A stretch of DNA of 64,000 nucleotides from Polyangiaceae bacterium (GCA_046351455.1 JAXLYM010000003.1:216364-280363); one strand, 5' to 3'; shown: positions 16,709 to 59,105, numbered from the stretch's first letter. Translations and numbers: made by a program. The notes: generated from the sequence alone by a model not told the origin.

Positions 16709-19700
16709 ATGGCAGCTCCGGTCGCTCGGCGCTTCGCGCGCTGGCTCGCATTCGTCTTCACCTTCGCCGCATGCTGGCTCTCCGGCCGCGCGGCGCTCGC
16801 CACCACGATCCCCGGTGGCAACATCATCAACCAGACATGGACTCCGGCAGGCAATCCGTACCTGATTCAGGGTGACGTCACCGTCCCCTCGGGCGCCTTC
16901 CTGACGATCCAGGCCGGCACGATCGTCCAGTTCGCGAACAGCGATGGTCAGCTCGCGGGCCTCGACACGACGCGCGTCGAGATGACGATCAAAGGCACGC
17001 TCAACGTCAACGGCGTTCAGGGCAACCCGGTGGCCTTCTCCGGGCAGGCCGGCGCCGGCACGTCGGCGTGGTACGGTGTCGTGATCGACGCGGCCGCCAC
17101 GACGGCGGGCTTCACCTACGCCACGTTCCAGCACGCGCAGCGCATCGTGCGCAATTCGGCGCCGGGCACGGTGCTCTCGATGAGCAACGTCACCGTGACC
17201 AACTCGGCCAACGGCGTCGAGCTGCTCGCCGGCACTCCCACGCTCACGAGCCTGGACATCACCGGCGGGAGCTACGGCCTCAGCAGCTCCGGCAACGCGG
17301 CCCCGAACATCCAGTCGTCCACCTTCAAGAGCCAGACGTCCCAGGGGCTCGCGCTCTCTCCGACGACGGGCTCCCCGGCGATCACGGTGCAGAACACGAT
17401 CGTCACGGGCGCCGCGTTCTACGGCATCACGTTCGTGACCGATCTCAGCTCGAATTCCACGCTCGCGGTCACCAACACCACGGTCCACGGAAACGGGAGC
17501 TACGGTATCTACGTCGCCGCCTACAGCAGCAGCACCGCGACGCTGAACCTCAAGAACAGCATCGTCACGCAGCACCAGTACGGCGTCTTCAACTACAACG
17601 CGGCCGGCACCGAGATCATCAACGTCACGTACTCGGACGTCTGGAACAGCACCTCTGCCAACTACACGAACTGCTCCGGCGGGACTGGCGCCTTCTCGTC
17701 CAACCCTCTTTACGTGAGCGCCCCGACGAACATGCGGCTCACGTCCAACTCCCCTGCTCGGTTCGCGGGCGACACCCTCGCAGACATCGGTCCTCTGCCG
17801 TACGTGAACGACGCGACGCCCGGGTTCCACGGCACTTTGTGGACGAACACCACGTTCGGCGTCGCGGGGTCGCCGTACACCATCCAGGGGGACACGACGA
17901 TCCCGCCGGGCGTCATCGTCACGATCGATCCCGGCGTCACCATCCGCTGGACGGCCGGCACCGACATCATGGGATCCGGCCAGGATACGGGCCGTGGGGA
18001 GCTGCGGGTCCAGGGCACGCTGCAGGCGATCGGCACCGCGGCGCAGCCCATCACGCTCACGTCGACCGGGGCCGCCGCCGCGCAGCAGTGGACCGGCGTG
18101 ATCGGGCTCGCGGGCGCGACGGCGATGGCGCTCGGCTACGTGAACATCTCCAACGCCGACTCCGCGGTTCAGTCCTTCTTGACCGGAAACGCCTTCAGCG
18201 CGAGCCGGATCACCGTCACCACGTCCACGCGCGGGTTCGAGGTGCGCGCCGGAACACCCACGCTGACCGGCGTCGACGTGACCGGCGGCACGACGGGGCT
18301 CACGACGACGGGCAGCGCCGCCCCCACGATCCAGGCCTCCATCTTCAAGAGCCAGACGTCCCAGGGCCTCTCGATCGCCCCCACGGCCGGCAGCGGCACG
18401 ACGACGATCGTGAACACCATCGTGCGCGGCGCCGCGTTCTACGGCATCACGATGGTGACGGACCTCAGCGCGGTCGCGACGCTCAACCTCACGAACTCCA
18501 CGATCCACGGCAACGGGTCCTATGGAGTCTACATCGCGGCGTACTCCAGCAGCACCGCGAACGTGGCGATCAAGAACACGCTCGTGACGCAGCATCAATA
18601 CGGCGTCTTCAACTACAACGCGGCCGGGACCGAGATCGTGACCACCACGTACTCGGACGTCTGGAACAACACCTCTGCCAACTACACCAACTGCTCGGCC
18701 GGCACGGGCAGCATCTCGCAGAACCCGCTCTACGTGAGCCCGCCCACGGATCTGAAGCTCCAGAGCTTCAGCGTCTGCATCGACGCGGGCACGGCCACGG
18801 GCGCTCCGGCCACCGACTTCGACGGAGCGACTCGGCCCATGGACGGCGACGGCATCAACGGCGCGGCCTTCGACATGGGCGCGTACGAGCTCGCGGCGGC
18901 GGCCTCCTGCGGCGACGGCATCGTGAACAACGGCGAGGTGTGTGACAGCGGCGCTCAGAATGGCATGTACGGCGCGTGCAAGGCGGACTGCTCCGGCCTC
19001 GGCCCGCGCTGCGGCGACTCCATCGTGAACGGCCCCGAGCAGTGCGACGACGGCAACGTCAGCAACACCGACGCTTGCCTCAACACCTGCCAGAACGCAG
19101 CCTGCGGGGACGGCTTCGTCCGCGCCGGCATGGAGATGTGCGACGACGGCAACATGAGCAACACCGATGCTTGCCTCAACACCTGCGTCCCGGCCTCGTG
19201 CGGGGACAGCTTCGTGCAGGCGGGCGTCGAGCAGTGCGACGACGGCAACCAGGTCAACACCGACGCTTGCCTGACGACGTGCATGAACGCGACGTGCGGT
19301 GACGGCTTCCTCCGCGCGGGCGTCGAGCAGTGCGACGACGGCAATCAGATCAACACCGACGCTTGCCTCAGCACCTGCCAGAACGCGACCTGCGGGGACG
19401 GCGTGGTCCGCGCGGGCGTCGACCAGTGCGACGACGGCAACGCCAGCAACACGGATAACTGCCTGAATACATGCAACAACCCCACTTGCGGCGACGGCTT
19501 CGTCCACACGGGCGTCGAGCAGTGCGACGACGGCAACCAGGTCAACACCGACGCTTGCCTCAACACCTGCCAGAACGCGATCTGCGGGGACGGCGTGGTC
19601 CGCGCGGGCGTCGAGCAGTGCGACGACGGCAACCCGGTCAACACCGATGCTTGCCTCAACACCTGCCAGAACGCCACGTGCGGTGACGGCATCGTGCAGG

Positions 19701-20974
19701 CGGGCGTCGAGCAGTGCGACGACGGCAATCAGGTCAACGGCGACAGTTGCACCAACATGTGCGCACAGGCGATCTGCGGGGACGGCGTCGTGCAGGCGGG
19801 CGTCGAGCAGTGCGACGACGGCAACGCCTCCAACACCGATGCTTGCGTGACCGGCTGCAAATCCGCCACGTGCGGCGACGGCTTCGTGCAGGCCAACGTC
19901 GAGGGCTGCGACGACGGCAATCAGATCGACAACGACGCGTGCCGCAACGACTGCAAGCTCCCGGGCTGCGGCGACGGCGTGAAGCAGGCGAACGAGCAGT
20001 GCGACGACGGCAACGCCTCCAACACCGACGGATGCCTCGTGACGTGCTTCTTGCCGAGCTGCGGTGACGGCTTCGTGCAGACGGGCGTCGAGCAGTGCGA
20101 CGACGGCAATCAGGACGACACCGACGCTTGCCCGACGACGTGCGTCCCGGCCAAATGCGGCGACAAGTTCGTTCAGGACGGCGTCGAGCAGTGCGACGAC
20201 GGCAACCAGGACGACACCGACGCCTGCGTGCAGGGATGTGTGAGCGCCACCTGCGGAGACGGCTTCATCCAGGCCGGCGTGGAGCAGTGTGACGACGGCA
20301 ATCAGATCGACAATGACGACTGCCCCAACAACTGCATCTCTCCCACGTGCGGAGACGGCGTGAAGCAGCCGAACGAGGAGTGCGACGACGGCAACCAGGA
20401 CGACACCGACGCTTGCCTCCACACGTGCATGAACGCGAAATGCGGTGACGGCGTGGTCGAGGCGGGCGTGGAGCAGTGCGACGACGGCAACCAGATCGAC
20501 GACGACGCGTGCCCCAACGACTGCCAGTCTGCCTCGTGCGGTGACGGCGTGAAGCAGCCCGGAGAGGCCTGCGACGACGGCAACGCCTCCAACCTCGACG
20601 ACTGCTTGAACGACTGCAAGATCGCGAGCTGCGGCGACGGTTATGTCCACGTCGGCGTCGAAGACTGCGACGACGCGAACGGCGTGGCCGGCGACGGCTG
20701 CAGCCCCACGTGCGAGTCCGAAACCAGCACCGGCGGCGCGGGCGGCGGCGGAAACGGCGGCTCCGGCGGAAACGGCGGCAACGGCACGGGCGCGACCGGC
20801 GGAAACGGCACCGGCGCGACCGGCGGCGGCGGCGGCGAAAAACCCGGTGACAGCGGTGGTTGCGGCTGCCGGATGGCCTCCGACTCCCCGGTGGAGACTC
20901 CGGCCCTCCTGATCGGTCTGATGACGCTGGGCGTGCTGCGGATCCGCCGCAAGAAGGCGGCCCGCGCGGCCTGA
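16709..20974 (+). CDS. giant secreted protein: N-terminal right-handed parallel beta-helix (pectate-lyase fold) repeats, then ~19 tandem Myxococcus cysteine-rich repeats (TIGR02232-like), then a Gly-rich spacer and a MYXO-CTERM-type sorting signal
   Basis: The signal peptide is [26 protein letters not shown]. There are repeated NTxVxG/NGxYG beta-helix rungs, and ~19 copies of CGDG(F/V)[27 protein letters not shown]. The protein ends [39 protein letters not shown]. Confidence 0.8.
18955..20660 (+). repeat. ~19 near-identical ~114-nt tandem coding repeats (the Cys-rich repeat array) inside the giant protein gene
   Basis: Blocks such as ggcgtcgagcagtgcgacgacggcaaccaggtcaacaccgacgcttgcctcaacacctgccagaacgc recur many times, identical or nearly identical. 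Confidence 0.85.
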
Positions 20975-21059
20975 TCAAAGCCAGAAGCCCCCGGCGGAGT
21001 GTGCCGTCGGGGGCCTCATCACGACAAGGCACCTCGCCTCTTCTCTCGACAGCCTCTCT

Positions 21060-22130
21060 TCAGGGCTTCGTCGGGAGCGGCTTCCCCGTCAAGAACGCGC
21101 GCAGCAGCGTGAAGAGCTCGTCCGGAGTCTCCAGGAACGGGATGTGTCCCCCGTCTTCGAAGACGACGAACCGGGCTTGCGGCGCGTGGGTCTTGTAGAG
21201 CCGCGCCATCCGCATCGTGGACAAGCGATCGTAGCGGCCCGCGATGACCAGCATCGGCATCTTCAGGTCCTTCAGGCGAGGACGGAAGTCGAGGCCCGCG
21301 ATCGAGCCTCCCGTCGTGAATTCACCGTCGGCCCCCGCGATGGTGTAGGCGAGGTCCCAATTGTTGGTGACGAAGCCCTTCGGGAGCTTGGAATACACCT
21401 CCGGGTTCCGGAGCGTGCACAGCCCGGACGGGATCCGAAACGCCTTCTGATGCTCGGGCGAATTGGAGAGCAGACCGCGCGCCCTCACCGCTTGAATCTC
21501 GTCCCAGATCTCGGGATACAGGTTCCGGATCTCCTCGGTGCAGACCTCGTTGGAGACTTGCCAGCTCGCCGCGTCGATGAACGTATTGGCCAGGATGAGC
21601 TTCGTGACGCGATCGGGGTGCGCGATCGCGTACCCCTGCGCGACCATGCCGCCGTACGAGTGCCCGAGCACCGCCCACCGCTCGAACCCGAGGGCTTTCC
21701 GGAGGCCTTCCAGCATCTCGACGTCGCGCTCGAACGTGTACTCGCTCAGGGACTTCGCTTGATCCGATTTGCCGCGGCCGAAGGCGTCGTAGCTCACCAT
21801 GCGAGCGACGTCGGTGAGGACCGAAAAGAAGGGGTGGAAATAGTGGGACTGCCCCGGTCCCCCGGCGACCAGCACCAGCGGCTCCCCCGTCCCTTCGACT
21901 TCGACCCACAGCTTCACGTCGCCGACCGCCACGTACGCCCCTGCGGGGTGCACCACCGTGATGGGCGTGAACGGCCCGCTCGACGCAGCGGGCGCGGGGG
22001 GCGCAGCGGGCGCGACCGGCGGGCACTCCACGGTTGCCTGGCAGCCTGTGAGGGCCGCGGCGACCATCAGGATGGAAGGCCACCCGCGGTGCGCGCGTGG
22101 ACAGCGGGGCGATGCGAGGGTCGACTTCAT
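21060..22130 (-). CDS. alpha/beta-hydrolase lipoprotein (prolyl aminopeptidase / S33-like)
   Basis: It starts MKSTLASPRCPRAHRGWPSILMVAAALTGCQA (a lipobox). It has the nucleophile elbow GHSYGG, an HGGP-like motif and a C-terminal DGGH. The listed ORF extends to 22340 with an implausible N-terminus. Confidence 0.8.
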   Translation of the reverse strand: MKSTLASPRCPRAHRGWPSILMVAAALTGCQATVECPPVAPAAPPAPAASSGPFTPITVVHPAGAYVAVGDVKLWVEVEGTGEPLVLVAGGPGQSHYFHPFFSVLTDVARMVSYDAFGRGKSDQAKSLSEYTFERDVEMLEGLRKALGFERWAVLGHSYGGMVAQGYAIAHPDRVTKLILANTFIDAASWQVSNEVCTEEIRNLYPEIWDEIQAVRARGLLSNSPEHQKAFRIPSGLCTLRNPEVYSKLPKGFVTNNWDLAYTIAGADGEFTTGGSIAGLDFRPRLKDLKMPMLVIAGRYDRLSTMRMARLYKTHAPQARFVVFEDGGHIPFLETPDELFTLLRAFLTGKPLPTKP

Positions 22131-22417
22131 GGATGGACTCCATCGTTCGGAGCGCAGCGCGCGGTCCGGAACTAGGCACCTGCGCACCTCATCCCTCCGA
22201 GAGGCAAGGAAGGATCCACCCGCATTCCATGCATCGCGAGCCCACCCACGTGGCCTGTGCGAGCGCCCCGCCTGCGTGAGGGCGCACCAGCGGCGCGCGT
22301 GAGACTCCGCTCCCTCTTCGGCGGCGGCGAAGGGACGCAACCGTTGCAGGGGGCGTGGGCAACGGGTAAAGAGGATCGTCCTCCGAAGGCTCCCGTGCGG
22401 GCCCAGAAGAAGCTGCG

Positions 22418-23671
22418 ATGATCCGCGAATTCTCGATCAAGAACTACAAATCGATCGTCGACCTCACGCTTCCGTTGGGGCGGATCAACTTGTTCATCGG
22501 GGAGAACGGGTGCGGGAAGACGAATATCCTGGAGGCCATGGCGATGGCCGCGGCGGCAGTCGCGGATCGGCTCGGAAACGAAGAGCTTTACAATAGGGGA
22601 GTCAGGATCGCGAAGCCGGACATCACGTTTAGCTCATTCACCGGACTCAAGACCTCCCGAGAGGTCGTCTTTCAGTTCCGGGATGAGCCGGGAACCGAGC
22701 GGGATCACGAGGAAGCGAAGCTCCGGCTGGTTCTCACGGCCGGCACGGAGAACGATTCATGGGCAAGGGTCAAATCAGAACCGGCTGCCGTCGCCGCAGC
22801 GACCCAAGAATCCATGGACTCGAAGGAGCTTGAGGATGTCGTCCGTAGAATAAACGATGGCGAACCGCTTGAACCTTCCTTGAGGCTCAAAGTACTTGCC
22901 GCGTTTCGCGAGACAATGCGCACCACGACACGAGAACAACGTGCGCTCTTCTTCTCGCTCAACAAGCAGCGTGCTCACTTAACTGAGTTTCTAACGGATT
23001 TTCTCATCTACAATGCCAATCACCTCGCCCTCCGCGGCCTCCTGAACCTCAGCCGCAAAGAGCCGCTCGGCATCCATGGCGAAAACCTCGACGTCACGAT
23101 TGCCTCTCTGGGTGACAAAGGCATTCGTGAGCTGCTGGAGCGCTCCGCCCTCATCCGCTGGGTGGAGCGCATCTTCACCGACCCGGACGACAAGCTCAAA
23201 TTCGACGGCTACAAACTCGGCCGCAGCACCTCCACCCTTTATTTCCGCGACCGCTTCATGCGCAAGCGCGCGAACCTCTTCTCCGCCGAGAACGCCAACG
23301 AGGGTATCCTCCACGCCCTCTTTTATCTCACGCTCTTCATCAGCGATCGCACCCCGAAGACGTTCGGCATCGACAACATCGAGACGGCTCTCAACCCCCG
23401 ACTCTGCCGCAACCTCATCAAACAGCTCGGAGATCTGGCGAAGGCCCACGACAAACAGGCCCTCATCACGACCCACAATCCGGCCGCGCTCGACGGCCTC
23501 GATCTCCACGACGACGAACAGCGCCTCTTCGTGGTCTCGCGCGACGATCAAGGGCGTACGGTGGCGAACCGCATCAAGCTGAAGCCGGAGACCAAGGGCA
23601 AGGAGCCTCGTCTCATGCTGTCCGAGATGTGGATGCGCGGGCAGCTCGGCGGCGTCCCGCTGGAGTTCTGA
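22418..23671 (+). CDS. ABC-type AAA ATPase of the AAA_15/AAA_21 (RecF/SMC-like, OLD/AbiLi/AriA-type) class
   Basis: The Walker A motif is GENGCGKTNILEA. A signature-like SAENANEGILHALFYL follows. The Walker B/D-loop is TFGIDNIETALNP and the H-loop is ITTHNP. The 5' ~600 nt have visibly lower GC (~50-57%) than the ~70% background. Confidence 0.85.
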   Translation: MIREFSIKNYKSIVDLTLPLGRINLFIGENGCGKTNILEAMAMAAAAVADRLGNEELYNRGVRIAKPDITFSSFTGLKTSREVVFQFRDEPGTERDHEEAKLRLVLTAGTENDSWARVKSEPAAVAAATQESMDSKELEDVVRRINDGEPLEPSLRLKVLAAFRETMRTTTREQRALFFSLNKQRAHLTEFLTDFLIYNANHLALRGLLNLSRKEPLGIHGENLDVTIASLGDKGIRELLERSALIRWVERIFTDPDDKLKFDGYKLGRSTSTLYFRDRFMRKRANLFSAENANEGILHALFYLTLFISDRTPKTFGIDNIETALNPRLCRNLIKQLGDLAKAHDKQALITTHNPAALDGLDLHDDEQRLFVVSRDDQGRTVANRIKLKPETKGKEPRLMLSEMWMRGQLGGVPLEF

Positions 23672-23674
23672 CCG

Positions 23675-24415
23675 ATGAAGGTGGGAGTCGTGGCGGAGGG
23701 GCCTTCGGATGTCGCCGTCGTCCTCAATATCCTCTTCGGCAAGCTCGGCGTGGAGCGTCGAGACATCGTGCCCATCCGGCCGGAGCTCACGACCGACGAG
23801 ACCGATCTCTCCGAAAAACGCGCCGGCGGCTACAAGCCTCCTTCGAAGAAGAGCTTCAGCAACTGGCAGCTCGTCCTCGGGGAGTGCGCGGATCGAACGA
23901 GCCTCTCCGACTTCCTGGACAGCCCCATCGACGAGCCGAGGCTCCTCGTCGTCCAGATCGACACCGCCGAAGCGCACCTCGCTGGATTCGACGTCGCGCG
24001 GCCCGACCACGACGCCGGCGACTACGTGGCAGAGATGCGGAGTCGTGTCGTGGCGAAGCTCGCGGCCTTGCTCGGAGAGGACTTGACTCCACGCACCCGA
24101 TTCGCTGTGGCCGTGGAGGAGATCGACGCGTGGGTTCTCACGCTCTACGCCGAAGACGGTGAGGAGACCGGTCGAGTCAAAAATCCCAAGAAGAAGCTGG
24201 AATTCGCCCTCAGCTCGGCTCCTGTCCCACGTTCGAAATCTCGTTCTCCCTCCGGCCGCGGAGCGACGAAGAGCGGTGATCGTCCCGCCAAGAAGTCTCT
24301 GTTCGAGCTCTACCACGAACGGAGCGCGCCGCTCCGCGATGGCGCCACGCTGGAGACTTGCAAGCAGCGGAACCGCAGCCTCGCGATGTTCGTCGACTCG
24401 CTCGCAGGGGATTGA
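23675..24415 (+). CDS. small partner protein of the ATPase, DUF4276-like, possibly a TOPRIM/nuclease-like effector
   Basis: It starts 4 nt after the ATPase stop. Its N-terminus MKVGVVAEGPSDVAVVLNIL matches the M-K-x-x-V-E-G-x-S/T-E start typical of DUF4276. There is an acidic cluster DHDAGD and an EEIDAW motif. I assign this from pattern memory, not from a database search. Confidence 0.55.
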   Translation: MKVGVVAEGPSDVAVVLNILFGKLGVERRDIVPIRPELTTDETDLSEKRAGGYKPPSKKSFSNWQLVLGECADRTSLSDFLDSPIDEPRLLVVQIDTAEAHLAGFDVARPDHDAGDYVAEMRSRVVAKLAALLGEDLTPRTRFAVAVEEIDAWVLTLYAEDGEETGRVKNPKKKLEFALSSAPVPRSKSRSPSGRGATKSGDRPAKKSLFELYHERSAPLRDGATLETCKQRNRSLAMFVDSLAGD

Positions 24416-24531
24416 GGGCAAAGGCTCCATCCCCGAAACTGGCAGCCTCCTCATCCCCCGTCGCGGCCGACGAGAATGCCAGTTTCGATTGCGCCCTTCT
24501 TTTTTGCTGGAACCCGCGGTCCCTTCGCGTG

Positions 24532-24705
24532 TCAGTGATAGAGGCTCACGGCGGCCCGCAGAAGCATGAACAGATAAGCTCCCGCCGTCGTCACCACCGC
24601 GGCCGGCACCATCACGTCCGCGAAGAAGCGCGCGAACGGGCGCAACGCCGGACGGGTCGCGAGGGCGCGCTCCTCCGCCAGCACACGCTGCGCGCGGCGC
24701 TTCAC
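24532..24705 (-). CDS. unlisted 57-codon single-TM ORF, GTG start, overlapping the ECF sigma stop as GTGA; candidate anti-sigma factor
   Basis: Reverse-strand translation gives VKRRAQRVLAEERALATRPALRPFARFFADVMVPAAVVTTAGAYLFMLLRAAVSLYH, which contains one hydrophobic helix. It is below the 60-aa cutoff of the ORF track. Confidence 0.3.
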   Translation of the reverse strand: MKRRAQRVLAEERALATRPALRPFARFFADVMVPAAVVTTAGAYLFMLLRAAVSLYH

Positions 24706-25331: not shown

Positions 25332-25473
25332 GGCTCAAGGAACGCGGCGGCGCGGCGAGTGTGACCGGCCGGACGAAAAAAAAGAAAAGGTGTCACACGC
25401 CGCGGCGGGCCGCGTTGACCGGGCGAGCGACGGGACGGACGGGCCGGACCGAGCGCTCGCGCGGAGACTGACC

Positions 25474-25830: not shown

Positions 25831-25900
25831 TCAGAATACGGACTGTTCATTTCGGGAGGGGAATCAGAGCGCGATGCAGATCGGCCGAGATGCGTCGCGC

Positions 25901-27679: not shown

Positions 27680-27747
27680 GGAAAGGAGTCTCCGTCGAAG
27701 GCGTGAAAGGAAGGACGGATCTTCCACGGCGGGGCCGCCGCGCGCAA

Positions 27748-46373: not shown

Positions 46374-47504
46374 ATGCTGCCGAAAATGCCCTGGTACCTG
46401 TACCTCATCGGCGCCCTCGGCCTGGCGCTGCTCATGATCGTGCACGAGGGAGGTCACTTCCTCGCGGCGCGCGCGTACGGCATGCGGGTGACCAAGTTCT
46501 CGATCGGCTTCGGGCCCACGATCTTCAAGGTCGTCCCGGACGAGGGGTACTTCTGGTTCACCACCGCCGCCGGCCGCATCCGCATCCGCTTGTGGCGTCA
46601 CGATCCCGAGAAGCACGGCCCCACGGTGTTCCAGGTCGCCGCGATCCCGTTCCTCGCGTACGTGCAGATCGCGGGCATGAACCCGCTCGAAGAGGTCGAC
46701 CCGAACGACAAGGGCAGCTACGCGAACGCGAGCCTCGTCGGCCGCATCGTCGCGATCTTCGCCGGCCCGCTCGCGAACTACCTCTTCGCGTCGGTGCTGT
46801 TCCTCGGCGTGTACTCGGTCGCCGGCAAGCTCGTCACGGTCGACCGCGACTCCACCACGATCAGCGTGCTCGACGGCCGCCCCGCGTCGAACGCGGGCAT
46901 CAAGGACGGCGACACGATCGTGAACGTCGGCGGCGTCGAGGTCGAGAACTGGACCAAGATGGCCGAGAACATCTCGAAGCACCCCGGCGAGAAGATCCCG
47001 ATCACCGTGAAGCGCAACAACGAGCGCGTGACGATCGAGGTCACGCCCTCGGACGAAGGCGGCAAGGGCCGCATCGGCGTCGGCCTCTACCGCTACCGCC
47101 AGAAGGTCAGCCTGCAGGAGGCCGGCGAGCTCGCGGTGAAGCGCCCCGCCCTCGTTTTGAAGGACCTCGTGCTCGGTCTCGGGGAGTGGCTCCGCCGCCG
47201 CACGGTGGAGGATCTCGGCGGGCCGAAGAAGATGGTCGAGGCGACGGCGGAGGCCGCGAAGAGCGGATGGGCCGATTTCGTCGAGTTCATGGCCGCGCTC
47301 TCCGCGTACCTCGGCGCGTTCAACCTCATCCCGTTCCCCGCGCTCGACGGCGGCCGCCTGATCTTCCTCGGCTACGAAGCCGCGACGCGCCGCCGCGCGA
47401 ACCCGCGCATCGAGGCCGTCATCCACGGCGTCGGCCTCATCATGCTCCTCGGGCTGATGGGCTACGTGACGCTCTTCAACGATTTCCGCCTGGGCGCCAA
47501 GTAA
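46374..47504 (+). CDS. rseP: RIP site-2 metalloprotease RseP (M50 with PDZ domain)
   Basis: HEGGHFLAARAYG (HExxH) lies in the first TM. There is a PDZ segment, and LDGG near the C-terminus. Confidence 0.9.
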   Translation: MLPKMPWYLYLIGALGLALLMIVHEGGHFLAARAYGMRVTKFSIGFGPTIFKVVPDEGYFWFTTAAGRIRIRLWRHDPEKHGPTVFQVAAIPFLAYVQIAGMNPLEEVDPNDKGSYANASLVGRIVAIFAGPLANYLFASVLFLGVYSVAGKLVTVDRDSTTISVLDGRPASNAGIKDGDTIVNVGGVEVENWTKMAENISKHPGEKIPITVKRNNERVTIEVTPSDEGGKGRIGVGLYRYRQKVSLQEAGELAVKRPALVLKDLVLGLGEWLRRRTVEDLGGPKKMVEATAEAAKSGWADFVEFMAALSAYLGAFNLIPFPALDGGRLIFLGYEAATRRRANPRIEAVIHGVGLIMLLGLMGYVTLFNDFRLGAK

Positions 47505-48521: not shown

Positions 48522-48523
48522 GG

Positions 48524-48562
48524 GTTTACAAGGGGGCAAAGCCCCCTCGTATCACTCCCCCG
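48524..48562 (+). repeat. copy 4 of the GC-hairpin repeat family, 3 nt after the stop of 47526..48521
   Basis: The sequence is gtttacaagggggcaaagccccctcgtatcactcccccg. Confidence 0.8.
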
Positions 48563-48590
48563 ATCGCCTACGAAACAAGGCTAGTTACGT

Positions 48591-49667: not shown

Positions 49668-49805
49668 CGAACCGTCCTTTTTCTTTCTTCCGAGAGGCCT
49701 TTTCGCCGCGGTTGCGCCCGAGACGCGCCGCGGCCGAGACTCGTTATCACAACCGGGCCTCCGCAGGTCTGTGCAAGACTCGCGCGAATTGGCATCCTGC
49801 GGACG

Positions 49806-50534: not shown

Positions 50535-50683
50535 ACGGCCGTGAACCGCGGCCTCCGCGCGCCGGACACGGATGTCATGCCGGGGCCCGCGCGCGCCGTC
50601 GCCGGACGTGCCGAAAGCTTGTTTTTGCGGCGAATGTGAGCGATGGAGCCGAGTGGCCCGAAAGGTGCCAAAGGAGCCCGCTC

Positions 50684-51346
<663 letters not shown>

Positions 51347-51391
51347 CAGGGATCCTGATGCCCTCTCGGGGCACGATTCAGAGTGCCAGTC

Positions 51392-52141
51392 TCACTTCGC
51401 GGCGGTCTTCGGCGTCTCGGCCGGCTTCGGCGCGTCGGGGGCGATCGGGGCGGAGCTCGGCGTCGGGGTGTCTTTCGGCACCTCGCTCGGGGGGGTGCTC
51501 TCCAGCTCTTCCAGCTCCCAGATGAGCTGCGTGTTGCCCTGCGCGCCCGCGAAACGCAGGCCGAACCACTTGGCCTTCGGCGAGATGGTGGGGCGGCCGT
51601 CCACCGTGGCGCGCGGGAACGAGATCCGGAACGCGCGGCGGTACACGGTGTTGTACGGGAAATACACGCGCTCGATCACGTTCGGCTTGCGGATCGCCTG
51701 GATCTCCTCCGGCGCCGTCTCGTTCCCGGTGTCGTCGATGAGGCGGACGATCCACGCGCTGTCGGGCTTCGTGAGGTCGTTGTAGCGGTAGTTGCCGCCG
51801 TAGATCGCGACGAAGAAGCGGTGGTGCTGGTGCGTCTCCTCCAGCGCCTTCTCCAGGAGCTTCTTCCGCTCGTCGATGGTGAGGCGGTAGTCCTGCACGT
51901 AGCGGACGGTGTACGCCCAGCGGAAATCCCACGACTCGAAGGTGGCCGTCGCGGTGAGGAAGTTGTCGAGCTCGCTCAGCGCGAAGAGGCGCTCGGTGCG
52001 GGTCCACAGGCGCAGCACGGTCTCGTAGTCGGTCGCGACGTACTCGCGCGGCCCCTCGGCGAGGGAGACCACCGTTGTCGCGCAGCCGAGCAGCGGAGCC
52101 CCCAGCGCGAAGCAGACGAACGGGACGAGGAAGGAGCGCAC
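51392..52141 (-). CDS. lipoprotein, hypothetical, with a Pro-rich C-terminal tail
   Basis: It starts MRSFLVPFVCFALGAPLLGCAT (a lipobox). The C-terminus is PTPSSAPIAPDAPKPAETPKTAAK. Confidence 0.5.
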   Translation of the reverse strand: MRSFLVPFVCFALGAPLLGCATTVVSLAEGPREYVATDYETVLRLWTRTERLFALSELDNFLTATATFESWDFRWAYTVRYVQDYRLTIDERKKLLEKALEETHQHHRFFVAIYGGNYRYNDLTKPDSAWIVRLIDDTGNETAPEEIQAIRKPNVIERVYFPYNTVYRRAFRISFPRATVDGRPTISPKAKWFGLRFAGAQGNTQLIWELEELESTPPSEVPKDTPTPSSAPIAPDAPKPAETPKTAAK

Positions 52142-52233
52142 GCCCCGACGCTACCACGGCCCCGGCCCGAAAGACGACACCGCGGCAACTTCACGCAAGA
52201 CATTTTCGCGGGCCGCTCTTACCCTCGCCGGTC

Positions 52234-54099
52234 ATGCGAAGTACCAGGCTCCTTGCGCTGACTCCCCTCTTTCTTTTGTCGATCGCCTGCTCCGCGGGCC
52301 CCAAGTCGAACAGCACCGGCGGCGGCGGATCGTCCAGCACCGGCGGCTCCAACACCGGCGGCGGCGGCATCGGCGGGGACGCGCCCACCTGCGATTTCTG
52401 TAACGATCAAGGATACACCCCCTGCAACCCCGACAAGACCCCGGGGACGCCGGTGCCATGTCCGCAGGCGTGCGCGCCGGGCGTCGGTTGTGCGGAGTGC
52501 GTCCCCGGCGCCAAGACGTGTGTCGGCAACGACGTGCACGAGTGCACCCCGGACGGCAAACCGGGCGCTACCGTGGAGTCGTGCGACGTCGGCAACGGCA
52601 TCACGTGCTCGAACGGGGAGTGCAAGAGCGCCTGCGCCGTGGCCGCGGATCAGCCGAGCAACGTGGGCTGTGAGTTCTGGGCGGTCGACCTCGATCAACA
52701 GGACGGCTTCAACGACCCTGCGAGCGCGCCGTGGGGCGTCGCCCTCTCCAACGCGGGCCAATCGACGGCCAACGTCACCATCGAGATCAACAACGCCAAT
52801 CCGGGGGAGCCGCTCCAGCTCCAGACGGTGGAGCAGCTCACGGTCCCGCCGGGCGGCCTCATCGCGAAGACGCTCCCGACGCGCGAGCTCGACTGCGGCA
52901 CCAAACCGAACGACTACGCCTCTCCGGGCACGTGCCTGTCGTCGCGCGCCTTCCGCATCACGTCCAGCGCGCCGCTCATCGTGTATCAGTTCAACGTCTT
53001 CGAGAACGCGTATTCCAACGACGCTTCCCTTCTTTTGCCGACGAACGCGCTCGGCAGCTACTACCGCGTGCTCGGCTGGCAGGCGGGCCACCCGGTGAAG
53101 ATCCAGGGCTTCAACATCCTGGATCGCTCCTACGTCACGATCGTCGGCACGACGCCGAACACCGTGGTGAAGGTGAAGCCGAGCTGGCGAATCAAGGGCA
53201 ACCCGCCTGTCGCGGCGACGCCGGCCGGAGGCGATATCCAGGTCACGCTCGGGCCGTTCGACGTGCTCAACCTGGAGACGGACGACGGCACGTTCCAGGA
53301 CGACGTGAAGACGATGGCGGACCTCAGCGGCACGTTGGTGACGTCGAGCTTCCCGGTGGCCGTGTTCTCCGGCACCGAGAGCACCGGCGCGCCCGGCGGC
53401 ATCGTCGACATCCCGAAGGGGCCCGGCTGGACGGACGGCGACACGTGCTGTCTGGACCACCTCGAAGATCAGCTCTTCCCCATCGAGTCCATCGGCACCA
53501 ACTACGTCATTCCGCGCAGCCCGATCCGCTCGACGGGCTCGTACCACGAGCCGGACGTGCTCCGTTTCGTGGGCGCGGCGGAGGTCGCGAACGTGACGAC
53601 GTCGCTGCCCGCCCCCTTCAATCAATTCACCATCAACCCCGGTGAGGTGAAGACGACCTGGACGCAGGACGACGTCATCGTGCAGTCCGACAAGCCGGTG
53701 ATGGTCAGTCAGATCCTGGTGTCCAATCAATACTGCGACGGCGCGTACATCGGTGATCCGTCGCTGACGGTGTACCCGCCGGTCGACCAGTTCCGCACGG
53801 AATACATCATCTTGACGCCCGGCTCCTGGGACAAGAGCTATGTCGTGATCGAGGCCGAGGTCGGGACGAACGTCTCGATCGACGGCATGACGCCCGGTAA
53901 CTGCGTGATCACGCCGTCCGGAGCGCTGAACGGCGTCTCGTACGAGTCGCGCCGCTGCCCGCTGCAGGAGGGTGCGCACTCGCTCTCCGGTGACAAGCCC
54001 TATGGCATCGTCGCTTATGGCTACGGCAACGCGGGATCGTACGCATTCGTGGGCGGCGCCGACGTAAAGAGGATCTACGAGCCGCCGATTCCCAAGTGA
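52234..54099 (+). CDS. large secreted lipoprotein, hypothetical; N-terminal Cys-rich module followed by a beta-rich domain
   Basis: It starts MRSTRLLALTPLFLLSIACSAG (a lipobox), then a (GGGS) linker, then a Cys-rich block CDFCNDQGYTPC...CAECVPGAKTCVGNDVHEC. About 540 aa of beta-strand-like sequence follow. The listed ORF starts at 52075. Confidence 0.55.
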   Translation: MRSTRLLALTPLFLLSIACSAGPKSNSTGGGGSSSTGGSNTGGGGIGGDAPTCDFCNDQGYTPCNPDKTPGTPVPCPQACAPGVGCAECVPGAKTCVGNDVHECTPDGKPGATVESCDVGNGITCSNGECKSACAVAADQPSNVGCEFWAVDLDQQDGFNDPASAPWGVALSNAGQSTANVTIEINNANPGEPLQLQTVEQLTVPPGGLIAKTLPTRELDCGTKPNDYASPGTCLSSRAFRITSSAPLIVYQFNVFENAYSNDASLLLPTNALGSYYRVLGWQAGHPVKIQGFNILDRSYVTIVGTTPNTVVKVKPSWRIKGNPPVAATPAGGDIQVTLGPFDVLNLETDDGTFQDDVKTMADLSGTLVTSSFPVAVFSGTESTGAPGGIVDIPKGPGWTDGDTCCLDHLEDQLFPIESIGTNYVIPRSPIRSTGSYHEPDVLRFVGAAEVANVTTSLPAPFNQFTINPGEVKTTWTQDDVIVQSDKPVMVSQILVSNQYCDGAYIGDPSLTVYPPVDQFRTEYIILTPGSWDKSYVVIEAEVGTNVSIDGMTPGNCVITPSGALNGVSYESRRCPLQEGAHSLSGDKPYGIVAYGYGNAGSYAFVGGADVKRIYEPPIPK

Positions 54100-54331
54100 A
54101 GAAGGTCGCCGACCTCCTTCACTTGAGAATCTCTTTTCCCATCTCGGGGCGGCACGCGCCGCCCCGCCCCGCCGGCGGAGCCGTCGGGGTCCCCACCCCA
54201 CGCGATCCGCAAACGACGGCATCACCCGCCAGCAGCTTCGGGCCTATCGTGGTTCCGCGCTTTCGCGACGGTGGCGCGTCTCCTCGGTGAGGGCGCTTTG
54301 CGAAGGGGGGGCGGCGTGCGATGCTCGCGGG

Positions 54332-57013
54332 ATGCGGAGGAAGGGTGACGAGATCGATGTGGGGCTCGCGCGCGCATACGCCTGGCGGACCACGTTGATC
54401 GAGGACGAAAAGAAGGACGAAACGGGCGGGGAAGGCCCCTCTTCGGAGGCCCCTTCGAGCGACGGGCCGCGCACCGTGGAGGAGCTGCTCGCGGCCGACG
54501 AGAGCCCCGACAGCGCCCCCGAAGAGGCCGCGAAAGAAGGCGCCGAGGACGAGGACGAAGACGAAGGGCCCGAGTCGGACGGGCGCGGGCTCGCCGAGCT
54601 GCGGCAGAACGCGCTCCGCGACGCGACGGCCCTCGCGCACGCCGTGGATCGCGCGTGGATCCTGCCGCCCCACCTCGGGCGCGCGCAGCTCGACGCCATC
54701 ACCGACCTGACGAGGCGCGCGCAGCGGATGGGCATGCACGTCACGGCGATGAGCCATTTTCCGCTCCAGAGCGTGCGCTTCATCCGCCTCGTCGCGCGGT
54801 GCTGGGACCACCTCGACGAGGAGGCGCGCGAGGCCGCCAACTTCGCCGCGCAGCTCTGCGACTACTCGCACCCGGAGTCCGCCGATCTCGTGATCGAGGC
54901 CGTCCGCACGGGCGATCCGCACCTCAACACGTCGCTCACGATGGCGATGCGCCGCGTGGTCGAGAAGGAGCTGACGCGCACCACGAACGTGAGCGCCCGC
55001 CTCGCGCGCGTGCTCGACGAAGGCCCCACCGACGCCGCGCGCCGAGAGGCCCTGATGCGCCTGCTCACGCTGGGCCGCCGCGACGCCGCCCAGGCGATGC
55101 GCCGCGCCCTCAAGAGGCCGGTGTTCGGCGTGCGGTGGCGCGCGCTCGACGTGCTGAGCCGCCGCTTCCCCGACGCGCTGGAGCCGTCAGACGCCCTGTT
55201 CCTGCTGGAAGAAGCGGTGATCCGCCCCGAGCCGCCGACCGAGAACGACCCGAACAACCAGGAAGGATACATCATGTATCCCGACCTGCTCGATCGCCTG
55301 GTGGCGCGGCACAAGCCCGCGGGCGGCGCGGCGCTGCTGATCCGCATCCTCGAAGGGCGCGCGGCGGGCGGCTTCCGCTGGGGCTTCCTCGACGACGCGT
55401 GGGCCATCGGCGTTCTCGCGGCCGCGTACCCGGAGGCGGCGCTGCCCGAGATCGACCACCGATTCCGTCACATCGAGTGGGACCGCCGCAAGCTCGCGCT
55501 CCGCGGATCGAGCCGATTGCCGGACGAGCACGCGTACTCTCGGCTCCTCCTCGCCGCGGAGGACCCGGTGCCCGAATTCGCGGAGAGCGCCCGCGCGACC
55601 TGGCTCACGCGGCGCGGATCTCCCTGCCCCGCGGCGCCGCTCGCGGGCCTGGACGAGGGCCTGCTCGACGGCCCGCCGAGCGAACGGATGCTGGCAAGAC
55701 TCGATGTATTCCGACGCGGCCCGGCGGCGGCGCGCGCGGCGATGGTGCGCGTCCTGCTCGACGAGGCGCCGGATCCGGAGGCGCTCGTGCTCTTGACGTT
55801 CGGCCTCGGGGACAGCCGCCTCTGGGAGGTGGACCGGCGCCCGGATCTGCCCGATCGACTGGAGGGCTTCGTCCGCGAGATCGTGAGTCGGTTCGGCGCG
55901 CGCGGCGTGCGGGCCATCCTCGCGCGGCACGCCCGCTTCCCCGAGCGGCGCTACACGTGGCTGTGGACGCTCTCCACGACGGTGACCGGCACGAACCCGC
56001 TCCGCATCCCGGAAGAAGCCTGTTCGGACGTGCGGGCGGCCTGCGCCAAGCGCCTCGCGGAGGAGCCGAGTCCGAAATACGATGTCTTGAACCTGCTCTC
56101 GGTGGTGGGCGCGCCGGCCGAGTCGGTGCCGCGCCTGTGCGCCGTCGCGTGGGATCCGCACGCCGAAGGGTATTTGCGGGACGCGGCGTCGGCGGCGCTC
56201 GCGACGTTGCCGGCGCCGGAACTCGCGGCGCTGCTCGACGGCGAGATCGACGCGGCGCGCGCAGCCTCGGACGTGCCGCGCCTCGTGCGGGCGGCGGTGG
56301 CGGGGATTCGTGGGGGCTCGCCGCGCGCCACCGCGGCCGCGGAGGAGGTGTTGCGGGCGCACCTCGACGCCGCGCCGGACGATCCCGCGCTCGTCGACGC
56401 GCTGGAGGGCTGTGCGCGGGCGATGCTCGACAAGGGCCTTCTCACCGAAGAGGAGCGCCGGTCGTGGCTCGGTCGCCCCGGCACGTGCGCGTTCGTGATC
56501 GCGGCGCGGCGGGCGCACTTCTTCTTCGACGAGCCGGACACCGTGACGGCCCTCACGGCGGCGCTCTCCGGACACCCTGTCTGCGGGGCGGCCGCGGCGC
56601 ACGCGCTGCTGTTCCGCGGCCAGATCCAGCCTTCGGACGCGCGCCTCGCCCGGATCGCCGAGCGCGTGCCGCTCCCGGTGCGAGCGGGCTTGTTCTGGTC
56701 GATGTTCTATCACGAGGTCCCGCCGCGCTCGATGTGGCCTCTCGTCGAGGAGGTCCTCGTCTCTCCGGATCCGGCGGTGACTGGCCCCTTCCGTCACCGC
56801 GTGGAGCAGCTCCTGGACGGCGGGATGGGCGATTTCATCGCCTCGCTGGAGCACCGCGTCGTGAGCGAGGGCATCCTCGCCGACATCGAGGGATGGCGCG
56901 ATCTGCATGCGACGAAGCCCGCGCCGTACTGGCAAGACGAGATCGCCGAGGACGACGAAGACGAGGACGAAGACGAAGACGAAGACGCAGCCGAGGCCGA
57001 AGAGGACCGCTGA
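54332..57013 (+). CDS. large cytoplasmic hypothetical protein with an acidic N-terminal segment and a poly-Asp/Glu C-terminal tail
   Basis: The ORF is 54287..57013. There is an acidic stretch EEAAKEGAEDEDEDEGPESDG near the N-terminus. The protein ends DEIAEDDEDEDEDEDEDAAEAEEDR. I see no recognisable catalytic motifs. Confidence 0.5.
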   Translation: MRRKGDEIDVGLARAYAWRTTLIEDEKKDETGGEGPSSEAPSSDGPRTVEELLAADESPDSAPEEAAKEGAEDEDEDEGPESDGRGLAELRQNALRDATALAHAVDRAWILPPHLGRAQLDAITDLTRRAQRMGMHVTAMSHFPLQSVRFIRLVARCWDHLDEEAREAANFAAQLCDYSHPESADLVIEAVRTGDPHLNTSLTMAMRRVVEKELTRTTNVSARLARVLDEGPTDAARREALMRLLTLGRRDAAQAMRRALKRPVFGVRWRALDVLSRRFPDALEPSDALFLLEEAVIRPEPPTENDPNNQEGYIMYPDLLDRLVARHKPAGGAALLIRILEGRAAGGFRWGFLDDAWAIGVLAAAYPEAALPEIDHRFRHIEWDRRKLALRGSSRLPDEHAYSRLLLAAEDPVPEFAESARATWLTRRGSPCPAAPLAGLDEGLLDGPPSERMLARLDVFRRGPAAARAAMVRVLLDEAPDPEALVLLTFGLGDSRLWEVDRRPDLPDRLEGFVREIVSRFGARGVRAILARHARFPERRYTWLWTLSTTVTGTNPLRIPEEACSDVRAACAKRLAEEPSPKYDVLNLLSVVGAPAESVPRLCAVAWDPHAEGYLRDAASAALATLPAPELAALLDGEIDAARAASDVPRLVRAAVAGIRGGSPRATAAAEEVLRAHLDAAPDDPALVDALEGCARAMLDKGLLTEEERRSWLGRPGTCAFVIAARRAHFFFDEPDTVTALTAALSGHPVCGAAAAHALLFRGQIQPSDARLARIAERVPLPVRAGLFWSMFYHEVPPRSMWPLVEEVLVSPDPAVTGPFRHRVEQLLDGGMGDFIASLEHRVVSEGILADIEGWRDLHATKPAPYWQDEIAEDDEDEDEDEDEDAAEAEEDR

Positions 57014-57256
57014 CGCTCCCCCGCCGCGACTTCACAAAAAATCCGTCCGCGCCACCCCCCGAGCAGAGTCTGTATACGACGAGGCGCACTGCCCCGTGTG
57101 AGGCGATCACGTGCGGCTGTCTTGGAGAGAGCCGCCCCGCTCGTCCGTCGGCTCGACAAAATCGACGCCGGCGCACTCCGCCGGATCCGTCCCTCCGCGC
57201 GCCGGAGACGGTGAGATATCGACCGATGTTTCACCCGGTGTAGACTCCCCACTTCG

Positions 57257-57275
57257 ATGTGGCGTTTCGCCACAA
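57257..57275 (+). promoter_or_regulatory. perfect 7-bp inverted repeat TGTGGCG-ttt-CGCCACA in a 660-nt intergenic region; candidate regulator binding site
   Basis: It can be seen directly in the sequence (atgtggcgtttcgccacaag). Confidence 0.3.
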
Positions 57276-57672
57276 GCCTCCTCTTGATTTGCCCTTGCAA
57301 AACGGGCTCGGCGCACGTTTCTTCCGCCTCTGGAAATCAGGAGTGGGCGGGGGGATCCAGATCGACATTTCATTTCGAATACGCACATTGGCGGATTGAC
57401 ATGGAGCCATTGGAGACGCTAAGGTGCCCTCTCCACTGATCGAGGTGCCCCGCGGGTCCCGCGGGAGGCTCTGACAGCCGCTGAGCCCGATTCCAGTGAC
57501 GCATGAAGTTTGGACCGACCTGGCGGCCGGACGTCCGCCGTGGAGGGAGCGGTGCATTCCGCTTCTTTTTACGGCGATCCGGCGCGTCAAGCCGCGACTC
57601 GGGAGAGGTGCGCCCGCCGCGAGCCTGGCCTGCATCGCACTCGACCACTTCCATCCTTGTAAGGAGTCTCCA

Positions 57673-58593
57673 GTGAAGCTTTCCAGCCTGCTCCTCGCGT
57701 GCGTCGCCCTCTCCTCCGTCTCCGTCGTCGCGGTCGGCTGCACAGCCGGTGATCCCGACGACGAGGACGTGGCCGAGATGGGCGGCGTCGAGAAGTCCGA
57801 GACCTTCGCGCCGATCCACAAGATGCCTCTCACCACGGCGAACCACGAGGCCCTCGCCGCCGCCGTCCCGGCCAACGCGCACCTCACGTACTACGGTGGC
57901 CCCGTGATCCAGAAGGTCAACGTGATCCCGGTGTTCTGGACGTCGACGGTGGCGAACCAGACGCAGCTCAACGCCTTCTACAAGGGCGTGACGAACAGCC
58001 CGCACTTCGATCAGCTCGCGGAGTACAACACGGCCTCTCCGGCGCAGACGTTCTCGCGCGGGACGGCGCAGAACGGATATGTCGACGCCGCCTCCACGAC
58101 CAAGATCACGGAGGCGAAGATCCAGGCCGAGCTGACGCGCCTCTTCAACAACAACCTCATCCCGAAGCCGACCGCCAACAACTTCTACGCGGTGCACTTC
58201 CCCAAGAACGTCGGTATCACGGCGAGCGACGGCTCGAAGGCGTGCGTGCAGTTCTGCGCCTTCCACAGCACCTATGTCTACAACGGCCAGAACGTCTATT
58301 ACAGCGTGATGCCGGACGTCTCCAGCACCGGCTGCGCGGGCGGCTGCGGCGGGAGCACGGCCTTCAACAACGAGACGTCGGTCGCCTCGCACGAGCTGAT
58401 CGAGGCCGTGACGGACGCGGCGGTCGGTCTCGCGACGACGTACGCCCCGCCGCTCGCCTGGTACGACCCGAACAACGGAGAGATCGGCGATATCTGCAAT
58501 GGTCTCCAGGGCACGGTCGTCGGCGGCGACGGCGTGACGTACACGGTGCAGAAAGAGTGGTCGAACTCGCGCAACGGCTGCTTCGCGCAGTGA
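57673..58593 (+). CDS. secreted lipoprotein, hypothetical, GTG start after an AAGGAG Shine-Dalgarno sequence
   Basis: It starts VKLSSLLLACVALSSVSVVAVGCTAG (a lipobox). It has an HELIEAVTD segment and a Cys cluster GCAGGCGG. The listed ORF starts at 57496. Confidence 0.5.
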   Translation: MKLSSLLLACVALSSVSVVAVGCTAGDPDDEDVAEMGGVEKSETFAPIHKMPLTTANHEALAAAVPANAHLTYYGGPVIQKVNVIPVFWTSTVANQTQLNAFYKGVTNSPHFDQLAEYNTASPAQTFSRGTAQNGYVDAASTTKITEAKIQAELTRLFNNNLIPKPTANNFYAVHFPKNVGITASDGSKACVQFCAFHSTYVYNGQNVYYSVMPDVSSTGCAGGCGGSTAFNNETSVASHELIEAVTDAAVGLATTYAPPLAWYDPNNGEIGDICNGLQGTVVGGDGVTYTVQKEWSNSRNGCFAQ

Positions 58594-58691
58594 TCGGGAC
58601 TCCCGCTCTCGCGTGAGCGGATCCGCGCCGACGAAGGGGGGCTCTCCAAAGACATGCTGTCTCGCCGGCGGAGGTGTGTTATGGCCTCTTC

Positions 58692-59105
58692 ATGGTGAGA
58701 ACCTCGCTCGTCGTCGCGCTCCTCGGCGCCTTGGGACTGTTTGCGGCGGCGCGCGGCGCTCGGGCCGACGTGGCCGGGCCGCGCGACGTGTGCGAGTTCG
58801 ACGAGAAGACGTGCGCTTCGTGCTGGGAGCCTTACGGCAAGCCGCCCGAGGGCGATCCGGCGTTCAAGACGTGCCAGGAGAGCGCGACGGCCAAGGGCTA
58901 CAAGGAGTCGTGTCGCAATCGCCAGGGCGCCGGCGATAACGTGGTGTTCTGCGCCGAGGGAGCGTCCGCGCAGAAGGTCACGAAGGGCGGCGGCTGCGGC
59001 GGCTGCTCGCTCGGAGAAGGGGCCGCGGAGAACGCGCTGCTCGGCGCCGGTGCGGTGGCGGCGATGCTCGCGGCGCGCCGCCGAAAGAGCCCGCAGCGCA
59101 AGTGA
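58692..59105 (+). CDS. small Cys-containing secreted protein with a MYXO-CTERM-type sorting signal
   Basis: The signal peptide is MVRTSLVVALLGALGLFAAARGARA. It has 8 Cys. The C-terminus is GGGCGGCSLGEGAAENALLGAGAVAAMLAARRRKSPQRK. Confidence 0.5.
   Translation: MVRTSLVVALLGALGLFAAARGARADVAGPRDVCEFDEKTCASCWEPYGKPPEGDPAFKTCQESATAKGYKESCRNRQGAGDNVVFCAEGASAQKVTKGGGCGGCSLGEGAAENALLGAGAVAAMLAARRRKSPQRK

Follow-up and report, generated by a model that had tools for sequence, protein, structure and literature searches.

Probable MYXO-CTERM sorting tails on three unrelated secreted proteins from a 64-kb stretch of a Polyangiaceae genome

The MYXO-CTERM sorting signal was first described in 2012 (PMC3325183), and myxosortase, the enzyme that acts on it, was predicted in 2023 (bioRxiv 10.1101/2023.06.07.544157) and confirmed experimentally in 2025 (PMC11980579). 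The tag is restricted to the Myxococcota, where it is present in 3-73 copies per proteome (bioRxiv 10.1101/2023.06.07.544157). Genomes of this phylum typically hold dozens of tagged proteins (PMC11980579), most of which are predicted to be adhesins or hydrolases (PMC11980579). Here we examine a stretch of 64,000 nucleotides from a Polyangiaceae bacterium (GCA_046351455.1, JAXLYM010000003.1:216364-280363), the whole of which we call the window and whose own positions we use throughout. Three genes in this window, which we denote P1, P2, and P3, encode unrelated proteins with predicted signal peptides and C-terminal tails of the MYXO-CTERM type. On the strength of these tails, we think it very probable that all three proteins are genuine substrates of the MYXO-CTERM/myxosortase surface-sorting pathway.

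Experimental knowledge of this pathway comes from Myxococcus xanthus. Cleavage of TraA by the myxosortase MrtX has been demonstrated, depends on Cys, and also works in Escherichia coli (PMC11980579). TraA and MXAN_4924 are the only proteins for which Cys-dependent C-terminal cleavage and surface localization through the type II secretion system have been demonstrated, in M. xanthus and E. coli (PMC11980579). P1 is built much like TraA (MXAN_6895) and its paralogue MXAN_4924, in that it also has a signal peptide, a globular head, a stalk of Cys-rich repeats, a disordered linker, and a GCGC-type tail (PMC3325183, PMC11980579). The parts themselves are different, however. The head of TraA is PA14 lectin-like and its repeats belong to TIGR04201, whereas the head of P1 comprises two beta-helix modules and its stalk 19 repeats of TIGR02232/DUF4215. 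Furthermore, P1 has no adjoining TraB-like partner, and a role for it in outer-membrane exchange is without support. P2 can be compared to M. xanthus MYXO-CTERM hydrolases such as the protease MepA, since it too is predicted to be a hydrolytic-type enzyme bearing a surface tag. It differs from these in having a probable lysozyme-like fold rather than a protease fold, and in belonging to a family that appears to be largely confined to Polyangiaceae-type genomes and that has a conserved upstream partner gene.

P1, P2, and P3 are previously unlabelled members of a well-described sorting system, and what we report is an annotation correction rather than a new principle. Its value lies in the annotation itself: GenBank lists these proteins as "DUF4215 domain-containing" or "hypothetical", while the tag marks them as predicted lipid-anchored proteins of the cell surface. 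The three proteins match exactly to proteins of one 626,359-bp contig of a Polyangiaceae metagenome-assembled genome (MAG) in GenBank, which directly confirms the myxobacterial origin that had been proposed before the source of the DNA was known.

A shared tail signal on three cargoes

An original prediction, made from the DNA alone, had quoted three C-terminal peptides from the window and assigned them to the MYXO-CTERM class. In-frame translation recovered all three peptides exactly as quoted. The interval given for the P2 tail (27748-27870) was also correct, while the P1 tail had been placed out of frame at 20860 instead of 20855, and the P3 tail at 58985, one nucleotide away from its true start at 58986. 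Each tail does contain the Cys motif, hydrophobic helix, and Arg/Lys cluster that had been claimed for it. The anatomy common to the three is [G/S]-C-x(1-2)-C, a spacer of 9-16 residues, an uncharged helix of 14-17 residues, and a basic cluster, which is RIRRKK in P1, RRRR in P2, and RRRK in P3. At their N-termini, the proteins have predicted signal peptides with a basic n-region, a hydrophobic h-region, and an A-x-A site (ALA/T, ASA/G, and ARA/D, respectively, with the slash marking the predicted cut).

We searched P1, P2, and P3 against 18,950 NCBIfam models, with hits reported at E <= 1. Among these models is TIGR03901.2, the NCBIfam model of MYXO-CTERM, which has a curated cutoff of 20 bits. 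The original prediction had named this model as its check. P1 passed, with a score of 23.1 bits (E 7e-5) over residues 1382-1414 of 1421, and this was one of three NCBIfam hits in the protein. For P2 (16.7 bits, E 0.007) and P3 (16.2 bits, E 0.01), TIGR03901.2 was the only NCBIfam hit, at scores below the cutoff. In all three tails the alignment ends 4-7 residues before the stop codon, that is, at the extreme C-terminus. Because these E-values are already corrected for the 18,950 models, the corresponding per-model probabilities would be about 1e-7 or lower.

If the three tails are one signal, a model of the tails from one family should recognize the tails of the other two. We built a hidden Markov model (HMM) from the tails of 112 P2 homologues only and ran it on the six-frame open reading frames (ORFs) of the window. 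This model matched the P1 tail at 22.0 bits (E 4.6e-6) and the P3 tail at 13.6 bits (E 0.0018), and the best score among the remaining 685 ORFs was 7.9 bits. Since the P2-family model finds P1 and P3 alone, we conclude that three unrelated cargoes have one sequence signal, and that no other ORF in the window has it. An HMM built from 12 tails of the P3 family was too narrow, missed the other two tails, and was not used as evidence. A combined HMM of 180 tails gave 24-26 bits for all three tails, compared to a maximum of 14.4 bits for reversed sequences. This combined model contains close relatives of each query, and we therefore treat its result as circular and rely on the cross-family comparison instead. 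Used at 10 bits, it also misses 25 of 79 P2-family tails, which are of a short-spacer variant.

Conservation of the tails within each protein family points in the same direction. Neither tail cysteine of P2 (C369 and C371) varies when 61 of its relatives are aligned. The distance from this CxC motif to the C-terminus holds at about 36 residues throughout the family, despite an unconserved linker of 59-96 residues ahead of it, and the motif itself takes the lineage form [GS]-C-[GSA]-C-R. A strict tail pattern was passed by 72 of 79 further P2 relatives taken from genome assemblies, and most of the other seven either pass by eye or are truncated or frameshifted. None of the 14 sequences of the P3 family lacks GGGC(G)GC, the helix, or RRRK, and of the two cysteines, the second never varies while the first is at least 90% conserved. 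The tail was seen in 63 of 120 P1 relatives, the remainder being mostly partial sequences, and most full-length relatives terminate in GGCGCR...RRRR. The Cys motif is therefore a conserved feature of the orthologues of each protein, contrary to what had been named as grounds for abandoning the assignment. Hosts of the homologues include Polyangium, Byssovorax, Minicystis, Chondromyces, and Sorangium.

These data also bear on the low scores of P2 and P3. TIGR03901.2 was matched at E <= 6e-4, approximately the level of the cutoff, by 25 of the 61 P2-family members and 5 of the 14 P3-family members, and the P2 and P3 tails from the window align column for column with the family members that reach it. 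This indicates that P2 and P3 are the weaker-scoring members of families whose tails pass. The author of TIGR03901 has stated that the region, of about 34 residues, is too divergent for a single HMM and needs lineage-specific models and curatorial review (bioRxiv 10.1101/2023.06.07.544157), and the sub-threshold scores fit this statement. P2 and P3 show that the general model under-calls MYXO-CTERM tails in Polyangiaceae. Two of our three tails score under the curated cutoff, as do over half of the relatives in two families. On this basis it is conceivable, though we suggest it only tentatively, that Polyangia have at least twice as many tagged surface proteins as are currently annotated.

We considered whether the tails might instead be plain C-terminal membrane anchors. 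In that case the proteins would remain on the periplasmic side of the inner membrane, and their cysteines would be there by chance or for structural reasons. DNA of 68% G+C easily gives rise to a hydrophobic stretch with an Arg-rich end, one unrelated membrane protein in the window has the same kind of ending, and the scores of P2 and P3 under the curated cutoff would be unsurprising for simple anchors. However, incidental cysteines would not be expected to be invariant across 61 P2 relatives when the linker of about 77 residues that precedes them is unconserved, nor would one expect three unrelated cargo families to share this motif at a constant distance from the helix. Along with the many orthologous tails that pass the curated model and the selectivity of the cross-family HMM, which picks out these tails and nothing else in the window, this leads us to regard plain anchors as a very unlikely explanation.

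The same searches address whether the tails could belong to another Cys-containing or Gly-rich sorting system, such as JDVT-CTERM/MrtJ, Synerg-CTERM, CGP-CTERM, GlyGly-CTERM/rhombosortase, PEP-CTERM/exosortase, or WGxxGxxG-CTERM. TIGR03901.2 was the only NCBIfam sorting-signal model to match P1, P2, or P3 at E <= 1, and the DNA comes from a Polyangiaceae genome, whereas the literature records that JDVT-CTERM never occurs in Myxococcota and that WGxxGxxG-CTERM has no Cys and is found outside the phylum. What gives this alternative some appeal is that the tripartite layout is common to all of these signals, and that the CGGC of P3 differs from the canonical GCGC. GlyGly-CTERM/rhombosortase (Vibrio VesB) and LPXTG/sortase illustrate the likeness, as both have a motif, a helix, and a basic cluster, and GlyGly-CTERM proteins are also displayed on the surface via the type II secretion system (PMC11980579). 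They nevertheless differ in motif, in taxa, and in protease class (a serine rhomboid and a cysteine transpeptidase, respectively, as opposed to the glutamic CPBP family), and neither model matches P1, P2, or P3. The Cys-type signals found outside the Myxococcota are likewise similar in having an invariant signature Cys and a cognate CPBP-family protease related to myxosortase (bioRxiv 10.1101/2023.06.07.544157), but theirs is a single Cys, with a helix that carries a DP motif or an invariant Pro/GP, and they give no match to the three proteins either. We accordingly give this alternative almost no weight. The MYXO-CTERM assignment made in the original prediction thus held up, with HMM matches, no competing family for P2 or P3, and tails that are conserved in orthologues.

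A pattern scan of the window returned one further candidate tail, which we rejected. The 215-amino acid (aa) protein encoded at 60675-61322 (minus strand) ends in ...LWAAAALLGLGALARRALRRA, which bears a superficial resemblance to the tails above. But this multi-pass membrane protein has no signal peptide, cargo layout, or Cys motif, scored nothing on the tail HMMs, and gave no Pfam or NCBIfam hit.

Predicted route to the surface

Experiments in M. xanthus (PMC11980579) and the comparative genomics of Haft (bioRxiv 10.1101/2023.06.07.544157) suggest how tagged proteins such as these would be sorted. After Sec export, the tail helix would retain the protein in the inner membrane with its Arg cluster in the cytoplasm. 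The invariant Cys would then probably be enzymatically lipidated. Next, the helix would be removed by a glutamic intramembrane protease of the CPBP family, the myxosortase, which in Polyangia would be of the MrtC type and encoded elsewhere in the genome. Finally, the type II secretion system would carry the folded, lipid-anchored protein to the cell surface. MrtC is the enzyme predicted for Polyangia (bioRxiv 10.1101/2023.06.07.544157).

Several observations weigh against assigning P1, P2, and P3 to this pathway. The P2 and P3 tails score under the curated 20-bit cutoff, and the motif of P3 is CxxC instead of the usual CxC. In P1 and P2 alike, the hydrophobic segment has a Pro at its N-terminal edge, while the helix in the published logo is without Pro or charged residues. 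All three signal peptides were assigned by eye only. Among the approximately 45 genes of the window, no CPBP/Rce1-like (PF02517) protease was found with Pfam, or with NCBIfam on selected membrane proteins and proteins of unknown function. Lastly, we infer the cleavage, lipidation, and localization of P1, P2, and P3 by analogy, from the M. xanthus experiments and comparative genomics. The main residual doubt comes from the sub-threshold scores and from the question of whether this genome has the enzyme. All known genera of the phylum are reported to have mrtX orthologues, and the M. xanthus gene belongs to a three-gene cluster of its own and is not described beside its substrates. For these reasons, a window that has no sorting enzyme is not evidence against the model. 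The sole intramembrane protease that we found in the window, encoded at 46374-47504, is an M50 enzyme of the RseP type; it has no relation to myxosortase and was set aside.

Cargoes, families, and a conserved partner of P2

The coordinates of P1, P2, P3, and the gene upstream of P2 are collected in Table 1.

Table 1. Positions of P1, P2, P3, their parts, and the P2 partner gene in the window
Feature	Position	Strand	Description	Basis or GenBank entry
P1	16709..20974	+	1421-aa ORF	MFO0587133.1, "DUF4215 domain-containing protein"
P1 predicted Sec signal peptide	16709..16801	+	residues 1-31, ...GRAALA/TT	read by eye from sequence
P1 cargo head	16802..18913	+	two tandem modules of ~330 aa	self-comparison, Pfam domains of relatives, NCBIfam
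P1 stalk	18908..20728	+	19 tandem Cys-rich repeats	TIGR02232, Pfam DUF4215
P1 linker	20729..20854	+	Gly/Asn/Thr-rich, low complexity, before tail	sequence
P1 MYXO-CTERM tail	20855..20974	+	39 residues: GGCGCR, 8-residue spacer, 25-residue remainder, stop	TIGR03901.2, P2-family tail HMM, in-frame translation
P2	27748..28968	-	406-aa ORF	MFO0587141.1, "hypothetical protein U0441_06375"
P2 predicted signal peptide	28891..28968	-	residues 1-26, ...AVASA/GY	by eye
P2 conserved catalytic-type domain	28078..28890	-	residues 27-297; motif AIATQESGW, invariant E111	
P2 linker	27871..28077	-	Gly-rich, disordered, unconserved; 59-96 residues among homologues	
P2 MYXO-CTERM tail	27748..27870	-	HACGCHVGAGDPMESEVPWTPLLTMTAMAVMALRRRRPTS, stop: HACGCH, spacer, VPWTPLLTMTAMAVMAL, RRRRPTS	TIGR03901.2, alignment
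P2 partner gene	28965..30089	-	374 aa, signal peptide; directly upstream of P2	
P3	58692..59105	+	137 aa, deposited ATG start	MFO0587165.1, "hypothetical protein U0441_06495"
P3 predicted signal peptide	58692..58766	+	residues 1-25, ...RGARA/DV	sequence and family alignment
P3 cargo	58767..58985	+	disulfide-rich domain of ~73 aa, small alpha/beta, six invariant Cys	alignment
P3 MYXO-CTERM tail	58986..59105	+	GGGCGGCSLGEGAAENALLGAGAVAAMLAARRRKSPQRK, stop: GGGCGGC (CxxC variant), spacer, NALLGAGAVAAMLAA, RRRKSPQRK	TIGR03901.2, tail HMM, family

P1 is laid out as a signal peptide, two beta-helix modules, 19 Cys-rich repeats, a Gly linker, and the MYXO-CTERM tail. The two tandem modules are 54.6% identical to each other, and an NCBIfam choice-of-anchor Q domain lies inside the second. 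Relatives of P1 contain Pfam Beta_helix/NosD domains and go by the name of right-handed parallel beta-helix proteins. When PDB was searched with the head, both by sequence and by profile, it returned low-complexity noise only. The repeats are about 32 aa long with four Cys each: TIGR02232 (myxo_disulf_rpt) scores 349.8 bits over 19 stretches, Pfam DUF4215 scores 308.1 bits over 18 stretches, and the stalk sequence resolves into 18 regular units of 31-34 aa. P1 would thus display a long beta-helix head, resembling an adhesin, on a stalk rich in disulfides. Its cargo had previously been labelled as a beta-helix adhesin or lyase, of which the beta-helix is upheld by the domains of the relatives, while nothing supports lyase activity. 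Kofleriaceae-type relatives of P1 (among P0145-P0148, P0165, P0175, and P0190) have a lineage variant of the tag, GGCC(E/S)T, with two adjacent Cys.

P2 consists of a signal peptide, a lysozyme-like domain, a Gly-rich linker, and the MYXO-CTERM tail. The highly conserved domain spans about 270 residues, and E111 of its AIATQESGW motif is invariant in the 61-sequence alignment. The Pfam SLT model (PF01464) matched at 19.1 bits, short of its gathering score of 21.3, and sequence and profile searches of PDB gave only low-complexity noise and no match. The AlphaFold model has a mean pLDDT (predicted local distance difference test score) of 67.7, with values mostly of 70-94 in the core and a disordered linker. 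Taken together, there is moderate support for a lysozyme-like fold. P2 would then be a glycan-cleaving enzyme, with a substrate that could be peptidoglycan or another beta-1,4-glycan. The earlier label of P2 as a lysozyme or lytic transglycosylase is roughly right, with no more than this moderate support for the fold. The original prediction also tied these proteins to outer-membrane vesicles and predation. Such a link is speculation, although a surface-tagged, lysozyme-like P2 would be a reasonable candidate for a role in predation.

Database searches returned 511 relatives of P2, many of which are already called "MYXO-CTERM domain-containing protein" by JGI/NCBI. The family was found in 196 genome stretches whose labels are nearly all Myxococcota. 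Two observations on the tail deserve mention. In one branch of the family, the short-spacer tail has the form GCGCDSxPxLxALISL...RRRR and scores less than 10 bits on the combined tail HMM (loci among L036, L040, L047, L056, and L071). At locus L052, from one MAG, the tail GGCGCTSASGSALFSLMGLMLLAGIRRAQRR is out of frame with the catalytic domain (1018-2040 vs 2-1993), probably because of an assembly frameshift.

The gene directly upstream of P2 provides the sole lead with some biological promise. The GTG start codon of P2 overlaps the stop codon of this partner gene (GTGA), and from this arrangement we take the two genes to be translationally coupled. The partner protein gave no match in Pfam, NCBIfam, or PDB. 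Proteins 38-42% identical to it hold the same position in two other genomes (L003 and L004), and of the 76 P2 loci that include upstream DNA (among loci L002-L084), 75 have a partner homologue of about 360-375 aa as the gene directly before the P2 homologue and in the same orientation. By gene order, then, P2 and its partner appear as a strictly conserved two-gene unit. The partner could be an inhibitor or immunity factor, a chaperone, or a co-factor. Going further, one could propose that the pair is a dedicated module, found largely in myxobacteria of the Polyangiaceae type, for contact-dependent lysis of prey walls, comprising a surface lysozyme-like enzyme and a periplasmic inhibitor/immunity factor or export chaperone. 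We put this forward only tentatively, and would expect it to prove wrong more readily than right. If it is true, the partner would keep P2 harmless during its passage through the producer's own periplasm. The gene downstream of P2 (25901-27745, minus strand) resembles SBBP-repeat beta-propeller lipoproteins (NF047494, 86.8 bits against a cutoff of 400) and, unlike the upstream partner, is not conserved beside P2 homologues.

P3 is the smallest of the three, with a signal peptide, a disulfide-rich domain, and the MYXO-CTERM tail in that order. The longest ORF is 58674-59105 (plus strand), with a GTG start at 58674. The cargo domain gave no Pfam hit and no fold match. The family alignment bears out the description of P3 as a small Cys-rich protein. 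Near P3 are genes for an IgGFc_binding-domain protein (199 bits; 52075-54099, plus strand) and an FMO-like flavin monooxygenase (59.1-60.6 kb, plus strand), and both kinds of gene are also found near a P3 homologue on a 4.8-Mb contig of another MAG (locus L085). This suggests partial synteny around P3.

Genomic surroundings

We next considered whether the genes for P1, P2, and P3 belong together as an island, or local functional cluster, of surface-protein genes, in which case the presence of three tags in 64 kb would be meaningful. Approximately 0.45 Mb of DNA flanking P2 homologues has only about three other tails, or about 1 per 150-170 kb. The genome of M. xanthus is about 9.1 Mb in size. 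With 35 tagged proteins (PMC11980579), this organism has about 1 per 260 kb. From these two densities, we calculate a Poisson probability of approximately 0.002-0.008 for three tails in 64 kb, and the window therefore has a mild local excess. However, a genome of about 10 Mb comprises about 160 such windows, about one of which would have three tails by chance, and this window was chosen for the pattern. The background density is also an underestimate, because the tail detectors miss some true tails. Moreover, the genes are 7 and 30 kb apart, lie on different strands, and are separated by unrelated genes, including those for a hydrolase, a defence pair, a sigma factor, a vault-protein homologue, RecQ, and RseP. 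In other genomes, P2 and P3 homologues occupy different surroundings. Given the spacing, the unrelated neighbours, and the chance expectation, we rejected a functional cluster as very improbable.

The G+C content of the window is 65-73% throughout. We found neither tRNA nor tmRNA genes in its 64 kb, and nothing in Rfam reached the gathering score. Its least G+C-rich stretch (0.65) contains a candidate two-gene anti-phage defence pair (22418-24415, plus strand). The first gene encodes a 417-aa ABC/AAA_15-AAA_21 ATPase that is a full-length match to PADLOC PDC-M31A (273.5 bits), and the second, 4 nt downstream, encodes a 246-aa protein matching PDC-M31B (27 bits, E 8.5e-7). At 30758-33316 (minus strand), the window encodes a bacterial protein of 852 aa that is homologous to the eukaryotic major vault protein (MVP) and matches Pfam MVP_shoulder (107 bits) and Vault_3; the gene next to it, at 33335-34834 (minus strand), encodes a protein of the DUF2201 metallopeptidase/VWA-like kind. 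Homologues of MVP are already known from bacteria (bioRxiv 10.1101/872010). Closer to the start of the window are a truncated gene for an RCC1-repeat protein, which is cut by the window edge (2-487, plus strand), and a gene for a 1376-aa Ser/Thr kinase fused to an AAA_16/STAND NTPase (521-4651, minus strand). A protein with the full planctomycete-type PSD/PSCyt set of domains (DUF1587/1595/1592/1588/1585) is encoded at 12772-14424 (plus strand).

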